Part shown: positions 7,547-46,357 of the stretch, one piece after another
Layout: each line of letters begins with the position of its first letter
Position numbering within the stretch: position 1 is the first letter of the stretch
Assembly: GCA_963719225.1 (NCBI GenBank)
Contig: CAVRAY010000001.1
Span: forward strand, 1,024,001-1,088,000
Source of the DNA: Thermoanaerobaculia bacterium
GTDB lineage: Bacteria; Acidobacteriota; Thermoanaerobaculia; UBA5066
Reading direction: 5' to 3'
Length of the DNA stretch: 64,000 nt
Made by a program: the position numbers and the translations under genes
Notes under the pieces: model-generated
Database searches by the model: none
Told to the model about the DNA's origin: nothing
Seen by the model: only the letters and a program-made list of their open reading frames with translations

Positions 7547-8394
7547 TGGAAGTCGTCCTCGCCGAAAAGTACGGCTTCTGCGCCGGCGTTCGCGTCGCGG
7601 ACAAGCTCGTCCGCCTCGCCGCAAAGAAGGGCCAGAAGGGCGCGATCTTCGGGCAGGTCGTGCACAACGAAAGCGTCGAGAGCGAGATGGCGCGTCTCGG
7701 CTTTCCCACGGTGCACGATCTCGAGGCCGCGAAGGCCCACGAGGCACGCATCGTCTTTTCGGCGCACGGCGTCGCGCCGTCCGTGCGCGCGGAGGCCGCG
7801 TCGCTCGGCCTCGCGACGATCGACACGACGTGCAAGTTCGTGACGGACATTCACAACGAGATCATGCGGTCGCTGGACGACGGCTGCTTCATCGCGATTC
7901 TCGGTCAGGCCGACCACCGCGAGGTCGTCGGGTACACGAAGGACCTCGATCCCGCGCGCTACCACGTCTTTTACCGGCTCGACGAGGTTACGGCCTTCGA
8001 CTGGTCCTGCATTCCGCGCGTCAAGATCGTCTTCCAGACCACGATCAACTCCGAGACGTTCGCGCCGCACGTGGAGGAGATCCGCCTGCGCGTCCCGGAC
8101 ACGCGCGTGGCCGACACGATCTGCTATGCGACGAAGGAGAACCAGGACGCCCTGCGCGTCCTCTGCGCCGATCCTGCGATCGACGCGATCATCGTCATCG
8201 GCGGCAAGAACAGCAAGAACACGAAAGAGCTCGCGCGCATCGCTCAGGCGAAAAAGCCGACGTTCCTGGTCGGCACGGCCGCGGAGCTCGACGTCGCTCA
8301 GCTCGCGGGGATGAAGAAGATCGGGGTTTCCGCGGGGGCGTCGACTCCGGATTACGACGTCGAGGCCGTGGTCGCGAGACTCAAGGCGCTCTGA
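7546..8394 (+). CDS. ispH: 4-hydroxy-3-methylbut-2-enyl diphosphate reductase
   Basis: GFCAGV, VHN, SAHGV, DTTC, HREV, QTT, TICYAT and GASTP motifs. The ATG overlaps the parC stop (TGATG). Confidence 0.92.
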   Translation: MEVVLAEKYGFCAGVRVADKLVRLAAKKGQKGAIFGQVVHNESVESEMARLGFPTVHDLEAAKAHEARIVFSAHGVAPSVRAEAASLGLATIDTTCKFVTDIHNEIMRSLDDGCFIAILGQADHREVVGYTKDLDPARYHVFYRLDEVTAFDWSCIPRVKIVFQTTINSETFAPHVEEIRLRVPDTRVADTICYATKENQDALRVLCADPAIDAIIVIGGKNSKNTKELARIAQAKKPTFLVGTAAELDVAQLAGMKKIGVSAGASTPDYDVEAVVARLKAL

Positions 8395-8439
8395 CCAAAG
8401 AGCGACGCGAAGCTGTCAGCGGATCGTGCGGTTCGCTCG

Positions 8440-8652
8440 CTACGTTCGGCCGAGAATTCCCTTAGCACGTTCGGTCATGTGAGGAAAGAGGTCCGGCGGT
8501 ACGTTAAGGCCCGCCGTGCTCACCATGTAGCGGGCGCAGCTTGCCCTGTCGCTTCCGCAATAGGCCTCCTTCATCGCCGGCGATGTCGGGGGCATGTTGT
8601 CCATCTTGTCGTTGAAGAACTGGCATTTTTCGATTTTCTCGCAACAAGCCAT
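8440..8652 (-). CDS. Small Cys-rich hypothetical protein (70 aa)
   Basis: CC..C.FF...YC......CARY...VP.DLFP pattern; strong RBS (AAAGGAG) and its own promoter; lower GC than the flanks. Confidence 0.7.
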   Translation of the reverse strand: MACCEKIEKCQFFNDKMDNMPPTSPAMKEAYCGSDRASCARYMVSTAGLNVPPDLFPHMTERAKGILGRT

Positions 8653-8693
8653 CGTCGTTCTCCTTTCTTCTCTTTATAACCACATGAATATAT

Positions 8694-8722
8694 ATTATTT
8701 CGCCTTCCCTTATGAGTGTCAA
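8694..8722 (-). promoter_or_regulatory. Sigma70 promoter for the 70-aa Cys-rich gene
   Basis: Minus strand TTGACA-N17-AATAAT in an AT-rich patch. Confidence 0.65.
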
Positions 8723-8836
8723 GGCTGGTGCGGCCCTCTCGCGACCGGGCCCGAGGTGACGAAGAAGTGCTTCGACTACTGGGCGAAGTACGACTGGACC
8801 CTGAGGAAATCGAAGGGTAACGAGCATGCGCCTTGA
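8723..8836 (+). pseudogene. Orphan 3' gene fragment (GWCGPLATGPEVTKKCFDYWAKYDWTLRK...)
   Basis: Coding-like G/C third positions start abruptly at the edge of the AT-rich patch, with no plausible start codon. Confidence 0.4.
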
Positions 8837-8888
8837 CCGGTCTCGCCTGATGCAGGCGCCTCATGACCGGGGCGGGCGGGCGCGTGTA

Positions 8889-8910
8889 CATTTCGTCTTG
8901 TTCCGAAATG
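8889..8910 (+). promoter_or_regulatory. Inverted repeat, candidate ArsR operator
   Basis: CATTTCG-N8-CGAAATG; the right arm contains the permease ATG. Confidence 0.5.
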
Positions 8911-9987
8911 ACGAACGCCACGCTCTCCCTCCCGACCTACGACCCTGTTGAGGCCCCGGCGGCTGGCCTGCGGCCCCGGACTGTCATCCTCCATCTCGCG
9001 GCGCTCGCCGTCTGGGTCGCCGCCTACGCAGTCATCGGAGACCTCTCGCGGGTCGTCACGACCCGCCTCCTCGGCCTCACGCCCGGGACGCACCTCGGCG
9101 CGGCGGTCGAGTTCTTCGTCTTCGAGGTCCCGAAGGTCCTTCTCCTCCTCACGCTCGTCGTCTTTGTCGTCAGCATCGTGAGGAGCTTCTTCACCCCGGA
9201 GAGGACTCGGAGCCTGCTGGCGGGTCGGCGGGAAACGGCCGGAAACGCGCTCGCGTCGCTCCTCGGCGTCGTCACGCCGTTCTGCTCGTGCTCGGCGGTC
9301 CCGATGTTCATCGGCTTCGTGACCGCGGGCGTGCCGCTTGGAGTGACGTTTTCGTTCCTCGTCGCCGCGCCCATGGTCAATGAGATCGCGCTCGCACTCC
9401 TTTTCGGCCTTTTCGGCTGGAAGGTCGCCGGGCTCTACCTCGGCACCGGTCTCCTCATCGCGTTCGTCGTCCGGCTGGGTCATCGGACGTCTGAAGCTCG
9501 AGGCCTGGGTCGAGCCGTGGGTCTACGGGACCCGTGGTCCCGTCAACGGCCCGGCGGGGGAGAGCGCCCGGCTGGGAGAGGCGTCTCGCGATCGGGCGCG
9601 AAGCAGGTCCGCGAGATCGTCGGAAAGGTGTGGCTCTACGTCGTCGCGGGGATCGCCGTCGGCGCCGGAATCCACGGCTGGGTGCCCGAGGACTTCATGG
9701 CGTCGGTCATGGGCAAGGGCGCCTGGTGGTCCGTGCCGCTCGCCGTCCTGATCGGCGTCCCGATGTACTCGAACGCGGCGGGCATCATCCCGATCGTGCA
9801 GGCGCTCCTCGGGAAGGGCGCCGCGCTCGGCACCGTCCTCGCGTTCATGATGTCGGTCATCGCCCTCTCGCTTCCGGAGATGGTGATCCTCCGCAAGGTC
9901 CTCACGCTGCGCCTCATCGCCGTCTTCGTCGGCGTCGTGGGAACGGGGATCCTCCTCGTCGGATACCTCTTTAATGCGCTCCTCTGA
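8908..9987 (+). CDS. ArsP/DUF318-family permease with a compensating internal frameshift pair
   Basis: TPFCSCSAVP, FLVAAPMVNE, GVPMYSNAAG and MMSVIALSLPE motifs. Between ~9470 and ~9595 the family-like sequence (SGWVIGRLKLEAWVEPWVY) lies in another frame. Confidence 0.85.
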   Translation: MTNATLSLPTYDPVEAPAAGLRPRTVILHLAALAVWVAAYAVIGDLSRVVTTRLLGLTPGTHLGAAVEFFVFEVPKVLLLLTLVVFVVSIVRSFFTPERTRSLLAGRRETAGNALASLLGVVTPFCSCSAVPMFIGFVTAGVPLGVTFSFLVAAPMVNEIALALLFGLFGWKVAGLYLGTGLLIAFVVRLGHRTSEARGLGRAVGLRDPWSRQRPGGGERPAGRGVSRSGAKQVREIVGKVWLYVVAGIAVGAGIHGWVPEDFMASVMGKGAWWSVPLAVLIGVPMYSNAAGIIPIVQALLGKGAALGTVLAFMMSVIALSLPEMVILRKVLTLRLIAVFVGVVGTGILLVGYLFNALL

Positions 9988-9988
9988 G

Positions 9989-10354
9989 ATGACGAAGTCC
10001 GGCCTCTCCGCCACGACCGCCGCCGCCAAGGCCCTCGCGCACCCCGCGCGACTCCGAGTCCTCGCGATGCTCTCGGGAGGGCCGCTCTGCGTGTGCCAGA
10101 TGACGGCCGTTCTCGGCTCGGCGCCGTCCACGGTCTCCGAGCATCTCCGGGAGCTGAAGCAGGCAGGTCTCCTCGTCGAGGAGAAGAACGGCAAGTTCGT
10201 CTTTTACCGGCTCGCGTCGTCGGCGGACGCGGCCCCGTGGCGGGACGCCGTACGCCGCGGTCTGGACGGCGATCCCGTCGCCCGCGCCGACGCGGCGCGC
10301 GTGGGCCGGATCCGCAGAATTCCCGTCGAGAAGTTCGCCGCAAGGAGAAGGTGA
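9989..10354 (+). CDS. arsR: ArsR/SmtB-family repressor with an As(III)-type CVC site
   Basis: KALAHPARLRVL, LCVCQM, STVSEHL and GKFVFYRL motifs. Confidence 0.85.
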   Translation: MTKSGLSATTAAAKALAHPARLRVLAMLSGGPLCVCQMTAVLGSAPSTVSEHLRELKQAGLLVEEKNGKFVFYRLASSADAAPWRDAVRRGLDGDPVARADAARVGRIRRIPVEKFAARRR

Positions 10355-10416
10355 TGGAGAACGTGGGCCGCATCCCGAAGGCGGACGAGATCCGCAGGCT
10401 CCTCGCGGGCGCCTGA
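10351..10416 (+). pseudogene. Probable 3' remnant of a small thioredoxin-like gene
   Basis: Reads ..VGRIPKADEIRRLLAGA*, which resembles the C-terminus of the small thioredoxin-family proteins that accompany ArsP; the CxxC-bearing N-terminus is absent. Confidence 0.45.
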
Positions 10417-10427
10417 CGCGCGGAAGC

Positions 10428-10590
10428 TCAGGCTCGGCGGCGGGCGAAGAGGCGTTCGAGCAGGGGCTTCGGCGGCGGGCACGTGCAGCGCTTGTCGCGC
10501 GGAACGCCCGCGCGGCGCGTTCTCCACGTGCCGGCCGCACCCGGCAAACGTCGGCTTTCCGCACCGGGAACAGGTCACTCGATGACACAT
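10428..10590 (-). CDS. Small Cys-rich peptide (~53 aa) with a 1-nt frameshift
   Basis: MCHRVTCSRCGKPTFAGCGRHVEN, then after a shift at ~10512 AGVPRDKRCTCPPPKPLLERLFARRRA*. The start overlaps the DUF6125-like stop region. Confidence 0.6.
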
Positions 10591-11204
10591 GGCGGAACCT
10601 TCCTGAGCTGAAACTCCCATCCGCAATGCCCGTGGGCGTCCGGGTCCGGCGGGCAGTGGAGGCAGCGGGTCTCGATGCGCGCGTCGACGGTGCGCGCGAA
10701 CGTCTCGAACTCGACCTCGCCGACGGGCCGGCACGGGAAGTCCGGGAGACCCTTGTGCCGCCGCGTTTCCTGGACGCGGCAGGACGTCATGAAGAAGCGC
10801 AGGACGGGCCCGTCCCGCTCGGTCCGGCTGGGGTTGACGAAGCTGTACGCCCGGAGAGAAAGCGCCCGCGCGAGCGCGTCGAGGCCGCCGTCCTTCGGGA
10901 TCGCGTACGCCTCCAGGATCCGGCGCGCCTCGGCGGCCGCGAACCGGCGCCAGGCTGCGGCGTCGAGGGCGATCGCGACGTCCATCCCGAAGCGTTCCTC
11001 GGCGGCGAGGAACCAGCTGCCGTCGTGCGCGAGCCAGTTCCTGGCGAAGACGTCGAGAGCCGTGAAGAGACCCGCACGGTCGAGCGCCTCGAAAGCGGGC
11101 GGGACGGCGGCGCGCGCCGCTTCGTGTCCGAGCGCCGCGAAGGCCTCGCGCCTCTTCCGGAAGGATTCCTTCCGGCGCTCGATCTCGTCCGGGGGCAGCG
11201 TCAC
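10575..11204 (-). CDS. DUF6125-like protein (V4R-like, Cys-rich C-terminus)
   Basis: NWLAHDGSWFLAAEERFG..A..LD..AW, SCRVQ..R..KGLPDFPC and CLHCPPD..HCGWEF motifs; GTG start at 11204 with a GAGGAAGGGG RBS. Confidence 0.75.
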   Translation of the reverse strand: MTLPPDEIERRKESFRKRREAFAALGHEAARAAVPPAFEALDRAGLFTALDVFARNWLAHDGSWFLAAEERFGMDVAIALDAAAWRRFAAAEARRILEAYAIPKDGGLDALARALSLRAYSFVNPSRTERDGPVLRFFMTSCRVQETRRHKGLPDFPCRPVGEVEFETFARTVDARIETRCLHCPPDPDAHGHCGWEFQLRKVPPCVIE

Positions 11205-11374
11205 GCGTCCGTCCCCTTCCTCGCCTCCGGCCGGGTCGGCCTCGAGCAGCTCGTCCCGCCGCCGGCGGGACCACTCGCCCCTCACGTCGGGACGCCGAGG
11301 CGCGGGAAGACGAACGTCTGGAGCAGAACCCAGACGAGCAGGGCGCCCCAAAGCCACGCGGCGTCGCTGCTCAT
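11201..11374 (-). CDS. Candidate selenoprotein: 57-aa single-TM peptide with UGA at codon 31
   Basis: MSSDAAWLWGALLVWVLLQTFVFPRLGVPT-UGA-GASGPAGGGTSCSRPTRPEARKGTDA*. GGAG lies 6 nt before the ATG, a SECIS-like hairpin follows the UGA, and the second stop overlaps the next GTG. Confidence 0.6.
11253..11271 (-). promoter_or_regulatory. Candidate bacterial SECIS element
   Basis: GUCCCGCC-GGC-GGCGGGAC is a perfect 8-bp stem starting 10 nt after the UGA (11282..11284); the apical loop begins with G. Confidence 0.55.
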
Positions 11375-11404
11375 CCGCGGCTCCGGGCGCCCACAGGGGT
11401 GGTG

Positions 11405-11454
11405 TTGGCGATGACCATTAATTACAATATAATCATTAAGTTATAGATGGTCAA
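11405..11454. promoter_or_regulatory. Overlapping divergent sigma70 promoters with a Fur/PerR-like box
   Basis: Plus strand TTGGCG-N17-TATAAT (11405..11433); minus strand TTGACC-N17-TATATT (11454..11426); ATATAAT-C-ATTAAGT at 11427..11441. Confidence 0.6.
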
Positions 11455-12667
11455 CCCCCCCGACCGCCGCCGCGTCCTCCTCTTCGCGTCGCCCGTCCTC
11501 GCGGCGCTGCCGCTCGCTGCGGCGCTCGTGGGCGTCTCGCTCGTCGCGGCCGACTCGCTTCGGGCGCGGGACGCGGCCGTGCGCGACGGGCTCCTCGCCC
11601 GCGCGGGCCACGAGCTCGAGGCCCGGCTTCGCAACGACGGGCCCGACGGGGCGCCGCAGGCCCTCGGGGAGTTCCTGGCCGCCCACGCGGCCCTCGTCCG
11701 GGGGGTCGAGGTGGTGGGACCCTCGAGAACGGCGGAGCGGCGAGGCGAGACGGAGGGGACCCCGGTCGAGATGCCCGCGATGCTGGGCCCGGGCTGGCGG
11801 CCCGCAGGCGGCTTCGGCGCGATGGCCGGCCCCGGGTTCGCGGAAGGCCGGCGGGGTTCCGGCCGCAGTCCCTTCGTGCTCCGCTTCTATCCGGCCCGCG
11901 GCGCCGGTGCCGAGGGCGGCCTCGCGCTCGCGCTCGTCCTCGGGTCGGTCGCGGCGGGAGCGGGCCTCGTCGTCCTGTCGCTCGCGGCGGCGCGCGGCCT
12001 CGCCGAGCGGGCACGGCGCGAGCGGCTCGAGGCCGAGCGCGAGCGCCTCGACGCCGTCGCCCTCACGGGCGCCGGCCTCGCCCACCGCGTTCGCAATCCT
12101 CTCGCCGCGATCAAGGGCACCGCGCAGCTCATGGCCGACCGCCCCGGCCAGCAGGTCGCCGAGCGCTCGCGGCGGATCGTCGAGGCCAGCGCCCGGATCG
12201 AGGATCTCGTGGCGCAGATTCTGAGGTTCGCGCGGCCCGTCGAGCCCCAGCCGGAGAGTCTCGACCTCGCCGCGCTGGCACGGGAGGCTGCGGAGCGCGC
12301 GGGCGAGGGCGTGACGGTTTCCGGCACTCCTTCGGTGGAAACGTTTGCCGACGCAGGCCACGCGGCCGACGTGCTGCACGAGCTCCTCGCCAACGCGCGC
12401 GCGCATGATCCCGGCGGGACGCTCGCCGTCGCCGTCGGAGCGGACGGCGGCACGGCCTGGGCGGAGGTGCGCGACCGCGGCCCCGGGCTCTCCGTCGATC
12501 CGGCGCGGGCGTTCGACCCCTACGTCACGGGCCGGCCCGGCGGCACGGGGCTCGGCCTCCCGACGGTGAGGGCGCTCGCGCGCGCGAACGGCGGCGACGT
12601 GACGCTCGCCGCGCACGCCGGCGGCGGCTGCGTGGCGCGGCTGACCCTGCCCGGGGTCCGGGGCTGA
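11447..12667 (+). CDS. Membrane sensor histidine kinase
   Basis: Two TM segments, H-box AHRVRNPL, N-box ELLANA, and DRGPG and GTGLGL boxes. Confidence 0.88.
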   Translation: MVNPPDRRRVLLFASPVLAALPLAAALVGVSLVAADSLRARDAAVRDGLLARAGHELEARLRNDGPDGAPQALGEFLAAHAALVRGVEVVGPSRTAERRGETEGTPVEMPAMLGPGWRPAGGFGAMAGPGFAEGRRGSGRSPFVLRFYPARGAGAEGGLALALVLGSVAAGAGLVVLSLAAARGLAERARRERLEAERERLDAVALTGAGLAHRVRNPLAAIKGTAQLMADRPGQQVAERSRRIVEASARIEDLVAQILRFARPVEPQPESLDLAALAREAAERAGEGVTVSGTPSVETFADAGHAADVLHELLANARAHDPGGTLAVAVGADGGTAWAEVRDRGPGLSVDPARAFDPYVTGRPGGTGLGLPTVRALARANGGDVTLAAHAGGGCVARLTLPGVRG

Positions 12668-12668
12668 G

Positions 12669-13952
12669 ATGGCGCGCGTCCTCGTCGCCGACGACGATCC
12701 GTCCTTCCGCGCGCTCCTGCGCGACATCCTCGAGGGGGAGGGACACGCCGTCGTCGAGGCCCGCGACGGGGAGGAGGCGCTGCGCTTCGCGCGCCGCGAG
12801 CCCTTCGCTCTCGTGCTGACGGACCGCCGGATGCCCGCGCGGGACGGGATCGCGCTCCTCAAGGCTCTGCGCGACGAGCTCCCGGCGCCGCCCCCCGTCG
12901 TCGTCCTGACGGGGTTCGGGACGATCCCGGAGGCCGTGGAGGCCGTGCGCCTCGGAGCCGCGGACTACCTGACGAAGCCGCTCGAGTCCCCGCGCGCGCT
13001 CCTCGCGGTCGTCGACCGGCTCCTCGCTCCCGAGGCGCCGGAAGAGGAGATCGTGACCTCGGACGCGCGGCTGCTCGAGGCCCTCGCGCTCGTCGACCGC
13101 GTCGCCCCGACGGACGTCCCGGTCCTCGTGACGGGGGAGTCGGGCACGGGCAAGGAGCTCGTCGCGCGACGGCTCCACGCCCGCTCGGCGCGCGCCGCGG
13201 GCCCTTTCGTCGCGGTAAACGCGGCGGCGCTGCCCGAGTCCCTCGCCGAGAGCGAGCTCTTCGGACACGAGCGCGGGGCGTTCACGGGCGCGGACCGCAC
13301 GCGGGCGGGGCGCTTCGAGGAGGCGAGCGGCGGCACGCTCTTCCTCGACGAGATCGGCGACCTCGCGCCCGCCCTCCAGGCCAAGCTGCTGCGCGTCCTC
13401 GAGGACGGGCGCGTGCGGCGACTCGGAAGCGAGAAGGACGTCACGGTCGACGTCCGCCTCATCGCCGCCACGAACCGCGACCTCGCGCGCGAGGCCGAGA
13501 TGGGCGGCTTCCGTCGCGACCTCTACTTCCGCCTCGCGGTCGTGCCCATCGCCCTGCCGCCGCTCCGCGAGCGCCCCGGCGACGTCCCGCTCCTCGCCCG
13601 GCACTTCGTGTCGCGCCTCGCGGCGCGTCATCGCCTGCCCGAACCGGAGCTCACGCCGGAGGCGCTCGACGTCCTCGGGGCTCAGAGCTGGCCGGGCAAC
13701 GTCCGTGAGCTGCGCAACGCGCTCGAGCGGGCGGTGGTGGTGCGTGGCGGCCTCGCGATCCGTCCGGAGGACGTGCGGCCGGCCGCCGCGTCCGCCGCGC
13801 CGACGCATACCCTCGACGAGGACACGCGCGAGCGCGAAGCCGCGCTCGAGGCCTTGCGCCTGTCGGGCGGGAACCGGGACGCGGCCGCCCGGAAGCTCGG
13901 GATCTCGGTCCGCACGCTCTACTACCGGCTCCGCCGCTGGGGCCTCAACTGA
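12669..13952 (+). CDS. Sigma54-dependent response regulator (NtrC/ZraR family)
   Basis: Intact receiver (DD, D-RRMP, KP), [22 protein letters not shown] and a Fis-type HTH. Confidence 0.93.
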   Translation: MARVLVADDDPSFRALLRDILEGEGHAVVEARDGEEALRFARREPFALVLTDRRMPARDGIALLKALRDELPAPPPVVVLTGFGTIPEAVEAVRLGAADYLTKPLESPRALLAVVDRLLAPEAPEEEIVTSDARLLEALALVDRVAPTDVPVLVTGESGTGKELVARRLHARSARAAGPFVAVNAAALPESLAESELFGHERGAFTGADRTRAGRFEEASGGTLFLDEIGDLAPALQAKLLRVLEDGRVRRLGSEKDVTVDVRLIAATNRDLAREAEMGGFRRDLYFRLAVVPIALPPLRERPGDVPLLARHFVSRLAARHRLPEPELTPEALDVLGAQSWPGNVRELRNALERAVVVRGGLAIRPEDVRPAAASAAPTHTLDEDTREREAALEALRLSGGNRDAAARKLGISVRTLYYRLRRWGLN

Positions 13953-14080
13953 CTGCAGGCGTTGCGCGGCGGACTGCAGGTCCTGCAGGGACGATCCGGG
14001 GATCGTTGGAGGCAATTTCTCAGAAAGCGTTGGGCGACGGGGCCTTGGGCCCGGCCCCCGAGGCGGGCACGAAGCGTGCG
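13953..14080 (+). promoter_or_regulatory. Sigma54 promoter with tandem upstream activator sites
   Basis: GGGCAC-N5-GTGCG at 14065..14080; CTGCAGGCGTTGCGC (13953) and CTGCAGGTCCTGCAG (13974) lie 21 bp apart. Confidence 0.55.
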
Positions 14081-14106
14081 ATGACATTCGCCGAAAGGAG
14101 AACGAC

Positions 14107-14646
14107 ATGAAACGCACCCTCATCGCCCTCGCTCTCGGCTCTCTCGCAACCTTCCCGCTCGTCGCGCAGCAGGGGTCCGGCTATGGCCGCGGCCCGGGCT
14201 ACGGTCGCACGGCGGCCGCATCGAGTATCGACGTCACGAAGCCGTCCACCGTCATCGGCGACGTCGTCTCGCTCAAGGGCGGTCCCGGCCTCGGGATGCC
14301 GACTCTCACCGTGAAGGTCGGCGGCAGGGAGGAGGCTTACGTCCTCGGCGCGTACCGGTATCTCACCGCGCAGAAGTTCGCGCCCGTCGCCGGCGACGCG
14401 GTCCGCCTCCTCCTCTATACGTGCGAGGAATGCCCACAGGGATTCGTCGTTGCCGAGGTCGAGAACCTCACGCAGAAGACCACGCTGAAGCTCCGGAACA
14501 CCGACGGCACGCCGGTCTTCGTCGGCGGGCGCGGCGGGCACGGATGGGGAGCGGGCGCCGGCTGCTGCGGCGGCAACGGCCCGATGGACGGCACCGGCCC
14601 GATGGACGGCACCGGCCCGAACCCGAACTGCCCGAAGAAGTCCTGA
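14107..14646 (+). CDS. Secreted OB-fold-like protein with a Cys/Gly-rich tail
   Basis: AAAGGAG RBS, signal peptide, CEEC, LRNTDGTPVF, and tail GCCGGN(GPMDGT)2GPNPNCP. Confidence 0.7.
   Translation: MKRTLIALALGSLATFPLVAQQGSGYGRGPGYGRTAAASSIDVTKPSTVIGDVVSLKGGPGLGMPTLTVKVGGREEAYVLGAYRYLTAQKFAPVAGDAVRLLLYTCEECPQGFVVAEVENLTQKTTLKLRNTDGTPVFVGGRGGHGWGAGAGCCGGNGPMDGTGPMDGTGPNPNCPKKS
14578..14620 (+). repeat. 18-nt tandem repeat encoding GPMDGT
   Basis: GGCCCGATGGACGGCACC x2 plus a partial third copy. Confidence 0.8.
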
Positions 14647-14650
14647 CGCC

Positions 14651-15862
14651 TCAGGCGCTCACGGGGACGGCCGCGGCCGCCTTCACGAGCGCCTGCTCGA
14701 GGTCGGCGATCAGGTCGCGCACGTCCTCGCAGCCCACGGCGAGACGCACGAGGTCGTCGGAGATCCCGGCGACCTCGCGCTCTTTCTTCGGCATCCCCGC
14801 GTGCGTCATCGAGGCAGGGTGCTCGATGAGCGTCTCGATGCCCCCAAGGCTCACGGCGAGCGTCGCGAGGCGGACCGAATCGATGAGAGCCTTGCCCGCC
14901 TCGAGGCCGCCCTTGACGCCGAACGAGAAGACGGCCCCCGGCCCCGCCATCTGCCGGAGCATCAGCGCGTGCTGCGGGTGGCTCGGGAGTCCGGGGTGGA
15001 GGACCCACGCGACTCCCGGATGCGTCTCGAGGAGGCGCGCGATCTCGAGCGCGCTCGCCTGCGCGCGCTCCATTCTGAGCCCGAGCGTCTTGACGCCGCG
15101 CAGCACGAGCCAGGCCTGGTGCGGGTCCATTGTCCCGCCGAAGGCGCAATGGACCTTCCGGAGCCGTTCGTGGAGCGCGGGGGAGCCGGTGACGATCGCG
15201 CCGCCGACGACGTCCGTGTGGCCGTTGATGTATTTCGTGAGGCTGTGGACGACGACGTCGGCCCCGAGCGCGAGCGGCTGCTGCAGGACCGGCGAGGCGA
15301 ACGTGTTGTCGACGACGAGGAGCGCGCCGTGCGCGTGCGCGATGTCGGCGCAGGCCCTGAGGTCCGTGAGCTTCATGGTCGGGTTCGCGGGAGTCTCGAC
15401 GTAGACCATCTTCGTCGAGGGCCGCATCGCAGCCGCGACGTTCTCCGGCTTCGAGGAGTCGACCCACGTCGAGGCGACGCCGAAGCGCGGGTACTCGTTC
15501 TCGAGGACGAGGCGCGACGGCCCGTAGACGGAGTCGGTCCCGACGACGTGCGCGCCCTGCTCGAGGAACGTGACGTAGACGGTGTTGATCGCCGCCATTC
15601 CGGTCGCAGCGCCGAGCGCGCCGCAGCCGCCCTCGAGGATCGCGAGACACTCCTCGAGCGCCGCGACGGTCGGATTGCCGAGCCGCGTGTACTTGTACCC
15701 GGGATCGCGGCCCTGGAAGCGTGCGGCACCCTCGTCCGCGTTCTTGAACGCGAACGTGGACGTCTGGTAGATCGGCGTCGAGACAGCGCCTGTGGCGGGA
15801 TCGGGACGCTGCCCCGCGTGGATGATGCGGGTGGCCGGGTGCATTCGGCGGATGTCGGTCAT
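14651..15862 (-). CDS. PLP-dependent trans-sulfuration enzyme (methionine gamma-lyase/cystathionine gamma-lyase family)
   Basis: PIYQTSTF, YTRLGNPT, ETPANPT, VDNTF, HSLTKYINGH and AVSLGG motifs. Confidence 0.9.
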   Translation of the reverse strand: MTDIRRMHPATRIIHAGQRPDPATGAVSTPIYQTSTFAFKNADEGAARFQGRDPGYKYTRLGNPTVAALEECLAILEGGCGALGAATGMAAINTVYVTFLEQGAHVVGTDSVYGPSRLVLENEYPRFGVASTWVDSSKPENVAAAMRPSTKMVYVETPANPTMKLTDLRACADIAHAHGALLVVDNTFASPVLQQPLALGADVVVHSLTKYINGHTDVVGGAIVTGSPALHERLRKVHCAFGGTMDPHQAWLVLRGVKTLGLRMERAQASALEIARLLETHPGVAWVLHPGLPSHPQHALMLRQMAGPGAVFSFGVKGGLEAGKALIDSVRLATLAVSLGGIETLIEHPASMTHAGMPKKEREVAGISDDLVRLAVGCEDVRDLIADLEQALVKAAAAVPVSA

Positions 15863-17403
15863 TGCGTTTCCTTTCCGTTCGCGAGCGCGTGCGCCGCCGT
15901 CCGCGGCTCCCATTCGCCCGTCTTGTCGTCGAGCACGTAGCCATCCGCGAGCTCCCGGCCGCGGCGAGCGACGTGGTCGACCCCTTCGAGGAGGGCCTGG
16001 AACTCGTCCTCGCTCACGGTGGGCGACAGGCTGATGCGCACCCAGCCCGGCTTCTCGCCGAGGTGGCCCTCGTCGAGGCGGTGGCGGATCGCCTTCGAGC
16101 GCGTCTCGTCGATCGCAAGAAGGAGGTGGCCGTACGGTCCGGCGCACATGCAGCCCGCGCGCACCTGGATCCCGAAGAGGTCGTTCAGGAGCCGCGCCGC
16201 GAGGTTGTGGTGGACGTTCGGGAAGATCACCGAAAGGACGCCGAGGCGGCGTGTTTCGAGATTGCCGAGGATCGCGAGGTCGTCGCGCGGTCGCCACGCC
16301 GCGATCGCGCGGGAGAGGTAGTCCCGTTCGATGCGTTCCGTTCGCGAGGCACCGACAGCCGCCTTGAGGTCGAAGGCGAGGGCGGCCTGGATCGTCTGGA
16401 CGATCGGGGGCGTCCCGCCCGTCTCGCGCGACTCGATCGCGCCGAGGTAGCGGTGGTCCCAGGGGGACGTGTAAAGGACCGTCCCGCCACCCGGTTCGGC
16501 CGGCACGCGGTTCGTGAAGAGGCGCCGGTGCGCGACGAGGAGGCCGGGCGTTCGCGGGCCCCCGAGGAACTTGTGGACGGAGAAGAACACGGCGTCGAAA
16601 GCGGCCGCCGGATCGCCCCCGGGGTGCATGTCGACGTCCACGTACGGGCCCGCCGCGGCGTAGTCGAAGAACGCAAGAGCGCCGTGCCGGTGGAGGACGC
16701 GCGCGAGGCCGTGCACGTCGTTCAGGATCCCCGTCACGTTCGATGCGGCGCTGAACGTCCCGATCTTCCAGGGCCTGTGCGCGCTCTCGGCGAGCTTGCG
16801 ATCGAGGTCCTCGAGGCTGATGCGCCCGTCCGGGTCGAAGTCCACGTAGACGGAATCCCCGATCGTCTCGCGCCACGCGATGTCGTTCGAGTGGTGCTCC
16901 ATGAGGGACCGGAAGACGACGGGCCGGCCCTCTCTGGGAATCCGGGCCGCGAGGCCGAAGCGCTCGTCGAGCTGATCCGGGAGCCTGAGGCCGAGAACCT
17001 GGATCAAGCGGTTGATCGCGCCCGTCGAGCCCGAGCCGACGGGGATCACGACGTCTTCGCTCGTGGCGCCGACGTACGCCCCGATCTTCCGGAGAGCCGC
17101 GTCATAGCGCTCCGTCATGAGGCGGCCCGTGGAGCTGCTCAGCGTGTGCGTGTTCGCCATGTAGGGGAGGACGCGCTCGTTCAGCTCGTCCTCGACGTCG
17201 CGGTGGAAGCGGCCGGACGCGATGAAGTCGAAATAGCGGAGGGGCCGCTCGCCGAAGGGGCCGGAAATCGTCGCGTCGACGCCGACGATCCGTGCGCGGA
17301 GATGCGCGAGGAACGCGGCCTCCTCGCCGGCCGAGAGCGTGACGACGGGGCCGCGGGTCGCGGCGGAGGCCGCGTCGACGAGTCGGGGCAGGCCGGAGGC
17401 CAC
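15859..17403 (-). CDS. Aminotransferase class V (cysteine desulfurase/selenocysteine lyase-like)
   Basis: ANTHT, EHHSN, AASNVTG, DYAAAGPY, SVHKFLGG, GGTP and RAGCMCAGPYG motifs. Confidence 0.88.
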   Translation of the reverse strand: MASGLPRLVDAASAATRGPVVTLSAGEEAAFLAHLRARIVGVDATISGPFGERPLRYFDFIASGRFHRDVEDELNERVLPYMANTHTLSSSTGRLMTERYDAALRKIGAYVGATSEDVVIPVGSGSTGAINRLIQVLGLRLPDQLDERFGLAARIPREGRPVVFRSLMEHHSNDIAWRETIGDSVYVDFDPDGRISLEDLDRKLAESAHRPWKIGTFSAASNVTGILNDVHGLARVLHRHGALAFFDYAAAGPYVDVDMHPGGDPAAAFDAVFFSVHKFLGGPRTPGLLVAHRRLFTNRVPAEPGGGTVLYTSPWDHRYLGAIESRETGGTPPIVQTIQAALAFDLKAAVGASRTERIERDYLSRAIAAWRPRDDLAILGNLETRRLGVLSVIFPNVHHNLAARLLNDLFGIQVRAGCMCAGPYGHLLLAIDETRSKAIRHRLDEGHLGEKPGWVRISLSPTVSEDEFQALLEGVDHVARRGRELADGYVLDDKTGEWEPRTAAHALANGKETQ

Positions 17404-17408
17404 GTCTC

Positions 17409-17771
17409 TCAGCGGCGGACGCCTCGTCGGGCGCGCCCGAGAATCGCGTCGGCCTTGTGGCGTGCCCCGCGCTCGACACCCTCGCAGACGATCGAGCAGA
17501 TCCTGAGGAGAGTCGGGTCGGCGATCGAGTAGACGGTGCGCGTGCCGTCCTTGCGCCGGCCCACGAGCGCCGAGCCGTGCAGGACGGCGAGGTGCTTGCT
17601 CACGTTCGCCTGCGTGCCCCCGACCTCGTCGAGGATCTCGCCGACGGAGGCATCGCTCCGAAAAAGCCGCCTCAGGATCTTGAGGCGCATGGGCTCGGAG
17701 AGCGCCCGGAAACGCATCGCGACCTCTTCGCAGCCGGCGTCCGTCAGGGGGAGGTGGGCGTTCATCGCCAT
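17409..17771 (-). CDS. ArsR/SmtB-family repressor, copy A
   Basis: FRALSEPMRLKIL, QANVSKHL and a C-terminal ICSIVC; near-identical to 39206..39559. Confidence 0.88.
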   Translation of the reverse strand: MAMNAHLPLTDAGCEEVAMRFRALSEPMRLKILRRLFRSDASVGEILDEVGGTQANVSKHLAVLHGSALVGRRKDGTRTVYSIADPTLLRICSIVCEGVERGARHKADAILGRARRGVRR

Positions 17772-39099: not shown

Positions 39100-39233
39100 C
39101 TTGAAATGGTCCTGACTCCCTTGCACCTGGTTGACGAAATCGCAGGCCTGCGCGACGAGGGACCGCGCACCGCAAGGGGAAGGCGCTCGGTCCGAGGTCA
39201 ACGTATCAAAGGAGAGATCGTATGTCCAGCAAC
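39100..39233 (-). promoter_or_regulatory. Conserved promoter and structured 5' leader, copy 2
   Basis: Homologous to 32883..33018. Confidence 0.5.
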
Positions 39234-39559
39234 GGATTTTGGGCGCTTCGAGCCTCGCGCTCGACGCCCTCGCAGACGATCGAGCAGATCCGCAGGAGCG
39301 TCGGGTCGGCGATTCTGTAGACGGCGCGCGTGCCGTCCTTGCGGCGGCCGACGAGCGACGAGCGGTGGAGGACGGCGAGGTGCTTGCTCACGTTCGCCTG
39401 CGTCCCGCCGACCTCGTCCACGATCTCGCCCACCGAAGATTCGCCGCGCGCGAGACGGCGCAGGATCTTGAGCCGCATCGGCTCCGAGAGCGCGCGGAAC
39501 CGCGACGCGACCTCCTCGCAGCCGGCGTCCGTCAGGGGAAGGTGCGCCTTCATCGCCAT
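39206..39559 (-). CDS. ArsR/SmtB-family repressor, copy B
   Basis: 12 differences from copy A over the first 104 aa; unrelated C-terminal tail; TCGCCATATGGCGA palindrome at 39553..39566. Confidence 0.85.
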   Translation of the reverse strand: MAMKAHLPLTDAGCEEVASRFRALSEPMRLKILRRLARGESSVGEIVDEVGGTQANVSKHLAVLHRSSLVGRRKDGTRAVYRIADPTLLRICSIVCEGVEREARSAQNPLLDIRSLL

Positions 39560-39567
39560 ATGGCGAC

Positions 39568-43118: not shown

Positions 43119-44305
43119 CGGGCGGTTCCCTTCGCCCCGGCGTCTTTCGGTTCTGCGACGGGCGCACCGTCCGCGGGCGGCGCCGTGAGGCCGACGAGAA
43201 CCGTCTCGCCGCCGGAGAGGCCGGAGAGAATCTCGATCTTCCCGCCCTGCGAGGCGCCGGTTGTGACGATGCGGGTACGCGCCTTGCCTGCGTCGTCCTT
43301 CACGGCGACGAGGGTGACTCCGCCGCTCGCGAGAACGGCGCTCTCGGGAACGAGAACCGAGGAGCGGACGGCGGTCTCGAGCGTCGCGCGGCCCGTGAGG
43401 CCGGTCGCAGCGGGCGAGCCGGACAGCTCGAGCGTCACCGTGTAGGTGTGGGTGGCGGAGTCGGCGCCGGGCGACATCTCGACGACCGTGCCCGTCATGC
43501 CGGCGGCCACGCCGTCGATCCGGACGGGCAGCTTCTGCCCTGCCTTGAGGCCGGACGCGGCGACGGTCCCGGCCGGGACCTGCACGACGAGGCGGCGGCC
43601 CGTCGCGGATTCGATCGTGACGAGCGGGCGGCCCGGAGCGGCGAGGTCGCCGGCCTCGACGAGGCGAGAGGCCACGCGGCCGGCGAACGGCGCCGTGACG
43701 CGGGACTCCCGTGCGACGGAGGAGGCTGCGTCAACCGCTCCTTCGCCCTGCTGGACGGCGCCCTTCGCCTGCTCGTACTGCATCCGGTTCATGTCGAGCT
43801 CGAGCGGCGAGGCGGAACCCGAGGCCGCGAGGGCCTTGTAGCGTTCGTAGTTGCGCTCGGCGAGGGAGAGCGCCGCGCGAGCCTGCGCGAGCGCGCCCCT
43901 CGCCTGAGCCTCCTGGCCCTTCGCCGTCTGCGGGTCGATCTCCACGAGGACGTCGCCGGCGGCGACGGACTGGCCGACGCGCGCCCGCACCGCCACGACG
44001 TTCGCCGTGACGCGCGATGAGACGGCGGCGGAGCGGTCGGCCGTGACGGTGCCGTAGAGAGTCAGGCGGTCCGGCTGCGAGGCCCTCTCCACTGTTGTTG
44101 TGGCAGCGGATACGGGAGGAAGAGGAGGATTTTTCTTAGAAGGTGAATGCGGGGAGCCGCAGGCGCCCAGCGAAGCCGCGCCCGCGGTGACGAGGCCCAA
44201 TACCACCGTCAAAGGAACTCCGGGTCTTCCGGTCTTCACCTTCGAAGAAAATCCGAATCCGAATCCGATCTTGGTCCCGATCTTTCTCAATCCGATCACC
44301 CTCAC
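43115..44305 (-). CDS. RND periplasmic adaptor (MFP), lipoprotein
   Basis: LGAC lipobox, lipoyl/barrel motifs (GQSVAAGDVL, VTAPFAG), EILSGL; the start is uncertain. Confidence 0.88.
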
Positions 44306-45681
44306 TCCGTTCCTCCGTTCAAGACACTCTCGGGGCGGCGTCCCGCCTTGACGGCGAGCTTCAGCGCCGCCGTGTGCGCATCGGCGCGGGTGACGAGCTC
44401 CCGCGTTTCCGCCTCGCGGCGGGCCGTCGTGACGTCCAGGAGATCGAGCGTCTTGACGACACCCGCCCGGAAACGGTCGTCCGTGATGCGCTCGGCCTCG
44501 CGCGCAGACTCGAGCGCCCTCTTCGCGGTCTCGTGCCGGGCCTCGGCGGTCCTCGCCTCCTCGAAGGCCTGCCGGACCTCGAGGCGCACGCCTTCCGTGA
44601 ACCGGGCGAGGTCTTCGCGGCCGGCCCGGGCGTCCTCGCGCGCCGCGATTGCGGCGGCTCGGTCCGCGCCCCCCTGAAACACGTTCCAGGTGGCGACCGC
44701 CATGATCGAGCCCGACGTGCCCGTCGAGCCGAACGGCTTGTCTCCGTAGAGCTCGCCCTTGGCGACGAGCGCGAGCTTCGGCCAGAAGGGCGCCCGCTTC
44801 ACCTTCTCCTCGAGCTGGCCCGCCGCGAGGAGCTTCTTCGCCGAGCCGAGGTCGGGGCGTTCGGCGGCGGTCGCGAGCCAGCCGTCGACCGGCGTCGCGA
44901 CGGGGCGCGGGTCGGGCAGCGGGGCCAGGTCCCACGAGGACCCGCCTGCGGCGCCGAGCCGGAACGCGAGGTTCGCGTTCGCGACCCGCACGCGGCCGTC
45001 GGCCTCGGTCACGAGGTCGTCCATCCGGGCGAGCTCGACCTCGGCCCTCAGGAGCTCCGACCGGACGAGCATGCCCTGCGTGACGAAGTCGCCGGCGAGC
45101 TTGACGTGCGCCGCGACCGTGTCGCGCGACTTGTGGAGGAGCGCCGCGTGCTCCTCGGCCTGTGCGACCATAACGTACGCCTCGGCGGCCGAAAGGGCTG
45201 CGTTGTCGGCCACCCACGCGGACGTGCCGGAGGCGGCCCCGGCCGCGAGGCGGGCCTGGTCGATACGCCCCGAGAGCTCGCCGCCCGTGAAGAGGGGGAA
45301 GACGATCTCGGCGCGCGTGATGCCGGTGTTCAGGGGCGCCGCGTCGTTCGGGTCGCTCGCGACGAACTCCGGGAACGAGAACGTGCCCTGGTTGAGCTTC
45401 AGGGCGAACGCCTCGGCCGGGTTGTTCGTGCGCATGAAGAGCGCCGTCAGGTTGAGCGACGGGAGGCGCATGGCCTTCGCCTGGGAGGCCCTGGCCTCGG
45501 CGGCACCCTGGCGGGCCTGTGCAGCCGTCACTTCCCGGGCGCTTTCCCGAGCCTTTTGCATCGCGCTCGCCAGAGTGAGAGGCGAAGGGGCCGGCTCGGC
45601 GGCCCGGACGGACCCCGCCAGGGCCCACGCGAGAAAGAGGAGAACGAGGGGGTTGCGTTTTTCCTTCACGGCTGCTACCAT
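44302..45681 (-). CDS. TolC-family outer membrane protein
   Basis: Signal peptide, PLFTGG, WNVFQGG and paired helical repeats; alternative GTG start at 45669. Confidence 0.88.
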   Translation of the reverse strand: MVAAVKEKRNPLVLLFLAWALAGSVRAAEPAPSPLTLASAMQKARESAREVTAAQARQGAAEARASQAKAMRLPSLNLTALFMRTNNPAEAFALKLNQGTFSFPEFVASDPNDAAPLNTGITRAEIVFPLFTGGELSGRIDQARLAAGAASGTSAWVADNAALSAAEAYVMVAQAEEHAALLHKSRDTVAAHVKLAGDFVTQGMLVRSELLRAEVELARMDDLVTEADGRVRVANANLAFRLGAAGGSSWDLAPLPDPRPVATPVDGWLATAAERPDLGSAKKLLAAGQLEEKVKRAPFWPKLALVAKGELYGDKPFGSTGTSGSIMAVATWNVFQGGADRAAAIAAREDARAGREDLARFTEGVRLEVRQAFEEARTAEARHETAKRALESAREAERITDDRFRAGVVKTLDLLDVTTARREAETRELVTRADAHTAALKLAVKAGRRPESVLNGGTE

Positions 45682-45694
45682 ATAGCTATATGGT
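45677..45694. promoter_or_regulatory. Perfect 18-bp palindrome, candidate ArsR operator
   Basis: ACCATATAGCTATATGGT between the divergent tolC and DUF2892 genes, inside a minus-strand TTGACT...TATGGT promoter. Confidence 0.65.
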
Positions 45695-45740
45695 TATAGA
45701 AGTCAATGGCCCCGTTACGGTCGATCCAAAGGAGACACCG

Positions 45741-45974
45741 ATGACCATCAACGACGCCCTCCGCAGCATCGCCGGATTCTTCGTCCTCGCCTCGGTCGCC
45801 CTCGGATACTTCGTCCACCCGGCCTTCTTGATCTTCACGGCCTTCGTGGGGGTCAACCTGCTTCAGAGCGGATTCACGAAGTGGTGCCCGATGATGTTCA
45901 TCCTCGGCAAGACAGGGCTGAAGGACGCGGTCGACCAGCCCAAGGCGCCCTGCTGCGCCGGGGAGGCCGCGTGA
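45741..45974 (+). CDS. DUF2892 (YgaP-like) membrane protein
   Basis: FVGVNLLQSGFTKWCPM motif; AAAGGAG RBS. Confidence 0.82.
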   Translation: MTINDALRSIAGFFVLASVALGYFVHPAFLIFTAFVGVNLLQSGFTKWCPMMFILGKTGLKDAVDQPKAPCCAGEAA

Positions 45975-46357
45975 ACGTCGCCGTCTCGTTCCCCGGCGGA
46001 GTGGCCGTCGAGGCCGACGTGAAGGGCCACCGGGTGCGGACCGACCAGCCGCGCCCCTACGGGGAAGACTCCGCGGCCGCGCCCTTCGACCTCTTCATCG
46101 CCTCGATCGCGACGTGCATGGGCTTCTACGCCCTGCGCTTCTGCCAGGAGCGCGGGATCGCGACGGAGGGACTCGGCCTCTCGGTCGAGACCGTCCGCGA
46201 CGAGGTGAAGAAGCGCCTCGCGACGATCCGGGTCGCGCTCACGCTCCCTCCCGGCTTCCCGGAGAAATACCAGGGCGCCATCCAGCGCGCCGTCGACCAG
46301 TGCGCGGTCAAGAAGCACATGGTCGAGCCGCCGGCGTTCGAGCTGACGGTCCACTAG
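45971..46357 (+). CDS. OsmC-family protein
   Basis: TDQP, PFDLFIASIATC and DQCAVKK motifs. Confidence 0.85.
   Translation: MNVAVSFPGGVAVEADVKGHRVRTDQPRPYGEDSAAAPFDLFIASIATCMGFYALRFCQERGIATEGLGLSVETVRDEVKKRLATIRVALTLPPGFPEKYQGAIQRAVDQCAVKKHMVEPPAFELTVH

Follow-up and report, generated by a model that had tools for sequence, protein, structure and literature searches.

Sequence elements of the locus and the in-frame UGA of ORF1

We analysed a minus-strand gene cluster in a 64,000-nucleotide stretch of DNA (hereafter the window) from a Thermoanaerobaculia bacterium (assembly GCA_963719225.1, 4.75 Mb in two contigs; contig CAVRAY010000001.1, positions 1,024,001 to 1,088,000, or G000:C1:1024001-1088000 in our numbering). 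An earlier note on this DNA had described three overlapping open reading frames (ORFs) under one promoter, coding for a selenocysteine (Sec) peptide, a DUF6125-like protein and a Cys-rich micropeptide. The three frames, ORF1 (11201..11374), ORF2 (10575..11204) and ORF3 (10428..10590), are present, all on the minus strand, and so is a sigma-70-like promoter, TTGACC-17 nt-TATATT (11426..11454, minus strand, read from 11454 to 11426). The region from 8300 to 11700 holds three promoter-like sites, compared to 0.3 in shuffled sequences. The surroundings were also as the note had them: annotation places arsP (ArsP_1) and arsR convergent to the unit, and a histidine kinase/sigma-54 regulator pair diverges from it. 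The main subject here is the first gene, ORF1, a member of what we call the LPxLGVxT-U family.

When its TGA at 11284-11282 is read through, ORF1 encodes a 57-aa protein that would be a single-helix membrane selenoprotein. This product consists of a hydrophobic helix, the motif PRLGVPT, U31, the segment GASGPAGGGTS and C43, and its stop codon (11203-11201) overlaps the GTG start of ORF2 (GTGA). A hairpin of the bacterial selenocysteine insertion sequence (bSECIS) type (11253..11272, minus strand; −14.9 kcal/mol) has an 8-bp stem and a GGC loop that starts 18 nt after the UGA. It satisfies the published bSECIS constraints, i.e. a loop of 3–9 nt, a stem of 4–16 bp, G in the first two loop positions, a distance of 16–37 nt from the UGA and a minimum free energy of at most −7.5 (PMC13188914). 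The overlap of the read-through stop with the next start was observed by pattern in 11 of 17 loci of the genus, with tails of 26, 28 or 29 residues in the overlapping loci, and a twelfth locus shows the same GTGA. In five of the 17, the next start lies 14 nt before the read-through stop.

The helix of the family is hydrophobic (median best 19-residue hydropathy of 2.0), and the mean number of K+R residues is 2.1 after it, as compared to 0.35 before it. As the basic residues follow the helix and do not precede it, the tail is predicted to be cytoplasmic. We infer from this charge bias an N-out/C-in orientation of ORF1.

We compared 105 distinct loci of the family from the genus and the phylum. 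The codon following GVxT was TGA in all of them (103 called by pattern and 2 corrected by hand). It was also TGA in 30 of 31 loci from the phylum of the Deltaproteobacteria-titled genome G356, and in 3/3 from that of the Anaerolineae-titled genome G357. In 103/103 loci the frame has no further stop within 15 codons of the TGA, compared to 86 and 71 for the other two frames, and a Cys occurs within these 15 codons in 96 loci (46 and 10 in the other frames; n=103). This Cys is at +5 in 71 loci (four residues between U and C), encoded by TGC in 51 and by TGT in 20, and at +12 in 19 loci, including this genus (11 residues between U and C). A bSECIS-like hairpin (loop of 3–14 nt, stem of at least 5, no energy cut) was found in 87/105 loci, compared to 109/1050 for random TGAs of the same loci and 152/1050 for synonymous recodings. 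The stem also covaries. In 66 of the 72 loci with U-x4-C, we counted 114 double-sided changes as against 44 ± 6 in shuffled alignments, none of 500 shuffles reaching this number. The covarying register outdoes all slid registers, and there is also a second register, in which the loop has 4 nt.

The genome itself carries tRNA-Sec, selA and selB. Of the genomes in the phylum sample, 236 have a clear selA, and 89 of these carry the family; among the 65 others it was found in one, which has selB. Since the genomes are related, the independence of these and of the family counts is overstated. Homologs having Cys in place of Sec are rare: L254, where the codon is TGC and whose genome has selA and selB, P0253 and P0258.

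It is very improbable that the TGA is an ordinary stop, giving a membrane peptide of 30 aa with GVPT at its end, and that the hairpin is some other RNA element. Databases do carry the family mostly as 'hypothetical proteins' of 29–31 residues (15 of 22 library matches), and 14 of the 20 inspected end at GVxT. Past the Cys, the tail shows no conservation and shifts in register, and TGA is the commonest final stop in these GC-rich genomes (TGA 69, TAG 20 and TAA 15 in the 105 loci). Still, the codon itself is never TAA or TAG, though 35 of the final stops are; it is replaced by Cys codons in three homologs; the Cys at +5 is maintained by either of its two codons; the hairpins have SECIS geometry; and the family is confined to Sec-using genomes. 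Besides the relatedness of the genomes, two observations speak against a Sec residue followed by a Cys: the hairpin of the window alone is not more stable than its shuffles (z −0.98, in a GC-rich sequence), and 8 of the 105 tails have no Cys. Taken together, the comparison of these sequences strongly supports what the earlier note had read in the first gene, a Sec followed by a Cys, and SelB-dependent read-through would almost certainly yield the 57-aa protein.

Distribution of the ORF1 family and its place among selenoproteins

We used two profiles for the family. The first, from 17 copies of the genus, reached distant members, and the second was built from 25 members. With the second profile, the family was found in 90 of 301 genomes sampled across the phylum, the 91st match (G262; E 5.7e-4, no motif) being a chance match that we excluded from the count. 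It was also found in 39/201 genomes of the phylum of G356 and in 3/151 of that of G357, and in none of the 151 sampled from the phylum of the Bacteroidetes-titled genome G358. The unpublished genome G037 enters the genome surveys only in the denominators.

The 25 members gave a best E of 0.0088 (ATP synthase b) against NCBIfam (June 2026), with no selenoprotein model, and no fitting model in Pfam. We recognised no matching row in a 2026 table of 119 selenoprotein families (PMC13188914), where no row is named with a GVxTU motif or as a one-helix peptide; the rows without a motif were compared only via NCBIfam and Pfam models. In the literature on selenoprotein families and small membrane selenoproteins we found nothing on this family, the family table of BSepDB (PMC13326102), a source accessible in part, lying outside the comparison. 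In the ESM Atlas, the best match of the Cys homolog P0253 (0.83) was unnamed. Homology of ORF1 to the end of the YgaP-like transmembrane (TM) domain (PF11127), with which it shares LxxLGV, was considered and rejected (hhalign probability of 7.5% over 15 columns, no Pfam match). From these searches, ORF1 very likely represents a widespread membrane selenoprotein family, present in at least three phyla and absent from the family lists compared.

The family resembles Sao, Tso, UXX-star and KCU-star (PMC13188914, Table 1) in having an in-frame UGA, a bSECIS-conforming hairpin and Cys homologs. Like other small SelB/bSECIS-dependent selenoproteins, it is confined to Sec-using genomes and mis-annotated as truncated, but it differs from the catalogued selenoproteins in being without a thioredoxin fold. 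In eukaryotic SELENOK and SELENOS, one membrane helix is followed by a flexible cytoplasmic tail carrying the Sec. ORF1 is similar to these in layout only (a single helix and a Sec-bearing tail), and we claim no homology. Its Sec lies ∼7 residues after the helix and is not C-terminal, in a protein of ∼55 aa. The deep-Sep paper, in the part available, states the limit of homology-based screens when Cys homologs are rare (PMC12013277). Rarity of Cys homologs would explain why the ORF1 family was missed by such screens.

Two members of the family are natural fusions. In L151 (1216-1644, minus strand) the read-through frame runs on into a zinc ribbon of the FmdB type, and in L141 (1378-1605, minus strand) into a double zinc ribbon. 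These fusions hint at a metal- or Fe-S-binding partner.

DUF6125, ORF3 and the probable shortening of the operon by deletion

ORF2 (209 aa, GTG start, minus strand) is a DUF6125 protein (PF19620; 191.5 bits against a gathering cut-off of 27; E 1.3e-56). The five Cys residues that the earlier note had pointed out in it (C142, C158, C181, C184 and C194) are invariant in 109 aligned homologs, so that both the family assignment and the Cys pattern are borne out. About 33 residues of a class I S-adenosylmethionine (SAM) methyltransferase are joined in frame to the N-terminus of the DUF6125 domain, and the last nine residues of the protein come from a downstream deletion.

A structure model of ORF2 (predicted local distance difference test score, pLDDT, of 92.8) matched DmpR (Z 10.3), BcsD (10.3), Bet3 (10.1) and PoxR (9.9). 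The top ten matches had Z scores of 8.6–10.3 over 130–155 aligned residues with root-mean-square deviations of 4.1–6.8, and Bet3, BcsD and PoxR were also the top matches in Foldseek. In the model, DUF6125 thus has the V4R/H-NOX/Bet3 fold. The zinc ligands of DmpR are given as C151, E172, C177 and C185 in the accessible part of the source (PMC7264223). In sequence, C158, C181, C184 and C194 follow the same order with a spacing of 23/3/10 as against 21/5/8, and by analogy these four residues are a putative, probable zinc site. As the four match the order of the DmpR ligands, C142 is left as an extra invariant thiol. We predict that DUF6125 is a zinc-stabilised small-ligand-binding domain with this additional Cys. 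The predicted fold is shared with the DmpR, PoxR and MopR sensors, TRAPP Bet3 and BcsD, and the Cys order with the zinc ligands of DmpR; the differences are an identity of only 5–15% and the extra C142. Moreover, the V4R sensors are fused to an AAA+ regulator, while in this lineage DUF6125 is fused to a SAM methyltransferase. A search of PDB sequences with the DUF6125 profile gave no match, and no paper dealing with DUF6125 by name was found in the literature. In the ESM Atlas, the nearest clusters are of ATC_hydrolase (0.89), which is a lead only. In a 349-aa protein (P0023), the DUF6125 domain occurs twice in tandem, with fewer Cys residues in the second copy.

The methyltransferase fused to DUF6125 in relatives is class I, UbiE-like and of the Methyltransf_11 type. 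We rejected its identification as ArsM, since it scored 38.8 and 30.7 bits against a cut-off of 263, and the methyltransferase part is free of Cys in the three proteins inspected (P0008, P0010 and P0015). In many loci of the genus it sits behind a methionine gamma-lyase-like gene. MddH, a thiol S-methyltransferase according to the part of the source available (PMC11445057), is shown to share with it only the Methyltransf_11/UbiE class. From the place behind the lyase-like gene one may guess at an MddH-like methylation of thiols. In the window, the methyltransferase is deleted.

ORF3 (minus strand) is a six-Cys micropeptide gene of the pattern MC-x4-CxxC...GCGxH...CxC. All the motifs that the earlier note had listed for it (MC, CSRC, GCGRH and CTC) are present, although not in one frame. 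From the ATG at 10590, the frame reads MC-CSRC-GCGRH and then runs out of register (128 codons, to 10204), whereas the half with CTC...ARRRA and the stop lies in another frame. The shift is due to one extra base near 10514, observed relative to G006, G020, G023, G001 and L037. Relatives having one base fewer encode an intact ORF3 of 53 aa, and contigs of relatives from two public sequencing runs are also without this base. None of the public runs carries this organism's own sequence (the best shares 0.11 of the window's words), and a check of the assembly found a frameshift in 1 of 17 other gene loci, too few to tell error from pseudogene. ORF3 of this genome is probably non-functional or mis-sequenced. 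ORF3 belongs to a family without a name that has at least 113 proteins, some from actinobacteria, with conserved MC, CxxC, GCGxH and RC. It has no Pfam or NCBIfam match, and the model of a relative's intact ORF3 (pLDDT 72.7) gave no Foldseek match below E 2. ORF3 was found in 8 of 29 genomes of the genus (G018, E 9.3e-4, was excluded): downstream of the Sec gene on the same strand in G000, G020, G006, G001 and G013, divergent in G023, and on other contigs in G024 and G021.

Comparison with relatives showed two deletions at this locus. Relative to G006, the window lacks 537 bp in frame, comprising the methyltransferase domain, at a 10-nt repeat (11107..11116, minus strand); in blastn against L126 the two matches overlap by these 10 nt. 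At a second junction (10594..10612, minus strand), relatives carry ∼290 nt with a 73-aa YgaP-like gene (PF11127) that is absent here, and due to this loss ORF2 runs into ORF3. The short ORF2 and its overlap with ORF3 are thus consequences of deletions relative to the relatives. G012 and G008 have lost the methyltransferase at a different junction, and hence the loss occurred at least twice. On these alignments, we consider erosion of the locus by deletion highly probable.

The Sec gene is present in 22 of the 29 genomes of the genus, and what follows it varies. It is followed by DUF6125 in 15 genomes, 12 having the SAM-methyltransferase::DUF6125 fusion and three having no methyltransferase (G000, G012 and G008). 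It is followed by the methyltransferase alone in G001, G026 and G016, by the YgaP-like gene in G013 and G014, and by a 70-aa Cys-rich protein in G003 and G007. Only 3/29 genomes (G000, G020 and G006) have the three genes on the same strand, and only in G000 is the trio without the methyltransferase domain and the YgaP-like gene in between. Outside the genus, none of 118 Sec-gene loci has DUF6125 and one has ORF3 (flanks of 1.5–3 kb), and none of 64 more distant DUF6125 loci has the Sec gene or ORF3, with a methyltransferase in nine (flanks of up to 4 kb). In the phylum sample, 13 of 52 genomes having DUF6125 are without a clear selA. The proposal of a conserved Sec peptide–DUF6125–Cys micropeptide unit therefore does not survive the check for co-occurrence. 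Judging from these comparisons, the trio is what deletions have left of a genus-level operon with variable gene content, and it is no conserved system. The functional context that the same note hoped to provide for DUF6125 was obtained in part, as a SAM methyltransferase partner in one lineage; there is no family-wide context.

In the 64 DUF6125 loci outside Thermoanaerobaculia, the gene that most often follows is CinA C-terminal (PF02464; 26/64, e.g. L076:2973-3458). L050, L051 and L099 have methyltransferase::DUF6125 fusions without a Sec gene, near CGGC-domain and cation-efflux genes.

Neighbouring genes and the possible function of the Sec family

The promoter of ORF1 is overlapped by a conserved AT-rich operator-like element, which by pattern scan is also found 5' of the orthologous gene in 11/22 loci, and 5' of the methyltransferase::DUF6125 gene in G030, where the Sec gene is absent. 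The element (11445) recurs in the window at 8675, between a 70-aa Cys gene and arsP, and at 45681/45698, between an RND operon and a YgaP-like gene. A common regulon based on this motif was rejected, because the number of sites is not above that of column-shuffled matrices, and it remains a lead only. An Rfam scan of 8000-15000 gave no match.

Several genes of the window deserve mention beside the unit. The 70-aa Cys-rich protein (8440-8652, minus strand; MACCEKIEKCQFF...YCGSDRASCARY) has its own strong promoter at 8722-8694 and no Pfam or NCBIfam match. Its gene lies directly 3' of the Sec gene in G003 and G007 (L294 and L296), as an alternative operon partner. The arsP-family permease gene (8863-9987, plus strand) has a garbled stretch near 9480-9600, where contigs of relatives lack single bases at 9466/9467, 9565 and 9602/9604; these are compensating indels, from error or decay. 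A 3' remnant of an MTH895/ArsE-family thioredoxin gene (10354..10416, plus strand) is fused directly behind arsR and is another deletion scar, an intact paralogous arsR/thioredoxin pair being found at about 109000-110900 of contig C1. Class-V aminotransferase (desulfurase-like) and methionine gamma-lyase-like genes lie at 14651-17403 (minus strand). In about half of the genus loci such genes are directly upstream of the Sec gene, from which they are separated here by an insertion of the two-component system and a periplasmic gene. The ArsR regulators encoded at about 17440-17770 and 39230-39560 (both minus strand) are nearly identical to each other, each having an N-terminal Cys and CSIVC in alpha-5. 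ArsR proteins of this type, with an alpha-5 CxxxC, are repeatedly found next to the Sec gene in the phylum, and they may be an undescribed sulfur-sensing subtype. At 44302-46357 there are a divergent TolC/RND operon and YgaP-like TM and OsmC-like genes. The same gene set is found around the Sec gene in many other genomes, and here it includes a palindromic AT-rich site (45681-45698) resembling the element of the ORF1 promoter.

We counted the neighbours in 118 Sec-gene loci outside the genus, many of which come from family f31 and are not independent. A YgaP-like TM gene is present in 43 loci, in 40 on the same strand and in about half within 20 nt. It is followed in frequency by FmdB zinc ribbon (35), thioredoxin (24), AcrB (18), DUF302 (17), class-V aminotransferase of the desulfurase type (15), USP (11), ArsR (9) and PII-like (8) genes. 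The islands of the genus have methionine gamma-lyase-like and desulfurase-like genes (both below the equivalog cut-offs), rhodaneses, YeeE/YedE, TauE and polysulfide-reductase subunits, as well as arsP, cation-efflux and chromate-transport genes. E. coli ygaP, according to the part of the report available, codes for a rhodanese with this membrane domain and is co-transcribed with the sulfide-responsive regulator YgaV (PMC9774250). The clusters described here resemble ygaVP and the SqrR/BigR-type operons in combining an ArsR-family regulator, the YgaP-like domain, rhodaneses and sulfur transporters. They differ in that the YgaP-like domain is free-standing, the ArsR has the alpha-5 CxxxC and falls below the BigR cut-off, and a selenoprotein is added.

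On balance, and with modest confidence, we favour the explanation that ORF1 is a membrane selenoprotein acting in a reactive-sulfur (persulfide) cluster, here within the deletion-shortened genus operon. For the sulfur role as such, which is suggested by the neighbours, the case is slightly better than even. SelB would read the UGA through to give a membrane-anchored U...C pair, the stop of ORF1 being coupled to the start of ORF2. U31 and C43 would lie on the cytoplasmic face of the membrane and would likely serve as a fast redox or sulfur-transfer handle, accepting sulfane sulfur or oxidising equivalents and handing them on. The pair may cycle between selenol/thiol and selenylsulfide or (seleno)persulfide forms and be reset by thioredoxin, working beside the YgaP-like membrane proteins that bear one invariant Cys. 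In the genus, the Sec gene would have come to lead, or to form part of, an operon with the methionine gamma-lyase-like and cysteine desulfurase-like genes, the SAM methyltransferase::DUF6125 fusion, the YgaP-like gene and sometimes ORF3, and in this genome DUF6125 has very probably lost the methyltransferase. A more ambitious version, which we hold as rather doubtful, is that the Sec family and the free-standing YgaP-like proteins form a membrane selenol/persulfide relay, through which sulfane sulfur would pass between export systems and the desulfurases, rhodaneses or thioredoxin of the cytoplasm. In the genus, this relay might be wired to the methionine gamma-lyase and a methyltransferase::DUF6125 protein whose role would be to remove thiols or selenols by methylating them, DUF6125 being its cysteine-armed ligand-binding arm.

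Several observations weaken the link to reactive sulfur. There is no YgaP-like gene within the fetched 1.5–3 kb in 75 of the 118 loci, and many loci have unrelated neighbours. The FmdB, thioredoxin, DUF302 and RND neighbours are not sulfur-specific, the ArsR beside the cluster genes scores 44.9 against a BigR cut-off of 155, and the operator-like motif has four matches genome-wide, including the site on which it was trained, compared to 0–4 for the column-shuffled matrices. The earlier note had instead proposed a system for the binding or transformation of metals or metalloids. In the form considered here (As, Se, Hg or Zn), the Sec peptide and ORF3 would be ligands and the operon part of the ars regulon. 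Metal(loid) genes do occur in the same island: arsP converges on the unit together with an arsR whose product has a CVC motif, the operator-like element recurs in front of arsP at 8675, and cation-efflux, chromate-transporter and P-type ATPase genes are found in the genus islands. In addition, ORF3 keeps C/H residues resembling a zinc finger, and a link to Hg/As resistance is described for several catalogued selenoproteins (PMC13188914). Nevertheless, arsP is near the unit in only a minority of the genus loci and is not a recurrent neighbour outside the genus, the fused methyltransferase region has no Cys in the sequences inspected and falls far below the ArsM cut-off, and the motif count is within the shuffled range. 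As the recurring neighbours favour sulfur/redox chemistry over As, Se or heavy metals, we find the metal(loid) explanation unlikely.

We judge it similarly unlikely that ORF1 is a general redox or accessory subunit, e.g. a small partner of an RND pump or of thioredoxin, without any special link to sulfane sulfur. AcrZ is a single-helix partner of AcrB, and such a role would agree with the AcrB-type (18/118) and thioredoxin (24/118) genes near the Sec gene, with the invariant P-x-x-G-x-x-T face of its single helix, and with the OsmC, USP and peroxiredoxin-like neighbours. On the other hand, 100 of the 118 loci have no RND gene within the fetched flank, and desulfurase, rhodanese, YeeE/YedE, TauE and polysulfide-reductase genes recur.

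The locus also cautions that three genes packed closely like an operon may owe this arrangement to deletions. For DUF6125, a V4R-fold domain gained and lost on a SAM methyltransferase offers a functional lead. As for the ORF1 family, gene callers cut it at 29–31 residues, and its design is minimal: one helix, one Sec and one Cys. If our reading is correct, it would add to the selenoproteome a family present in ∼30% of the sampled genomes of a dominant soil phylum and in 19% of those of a second phylum, and would tie the use of selenium to reactive-sulfur stress clusters.

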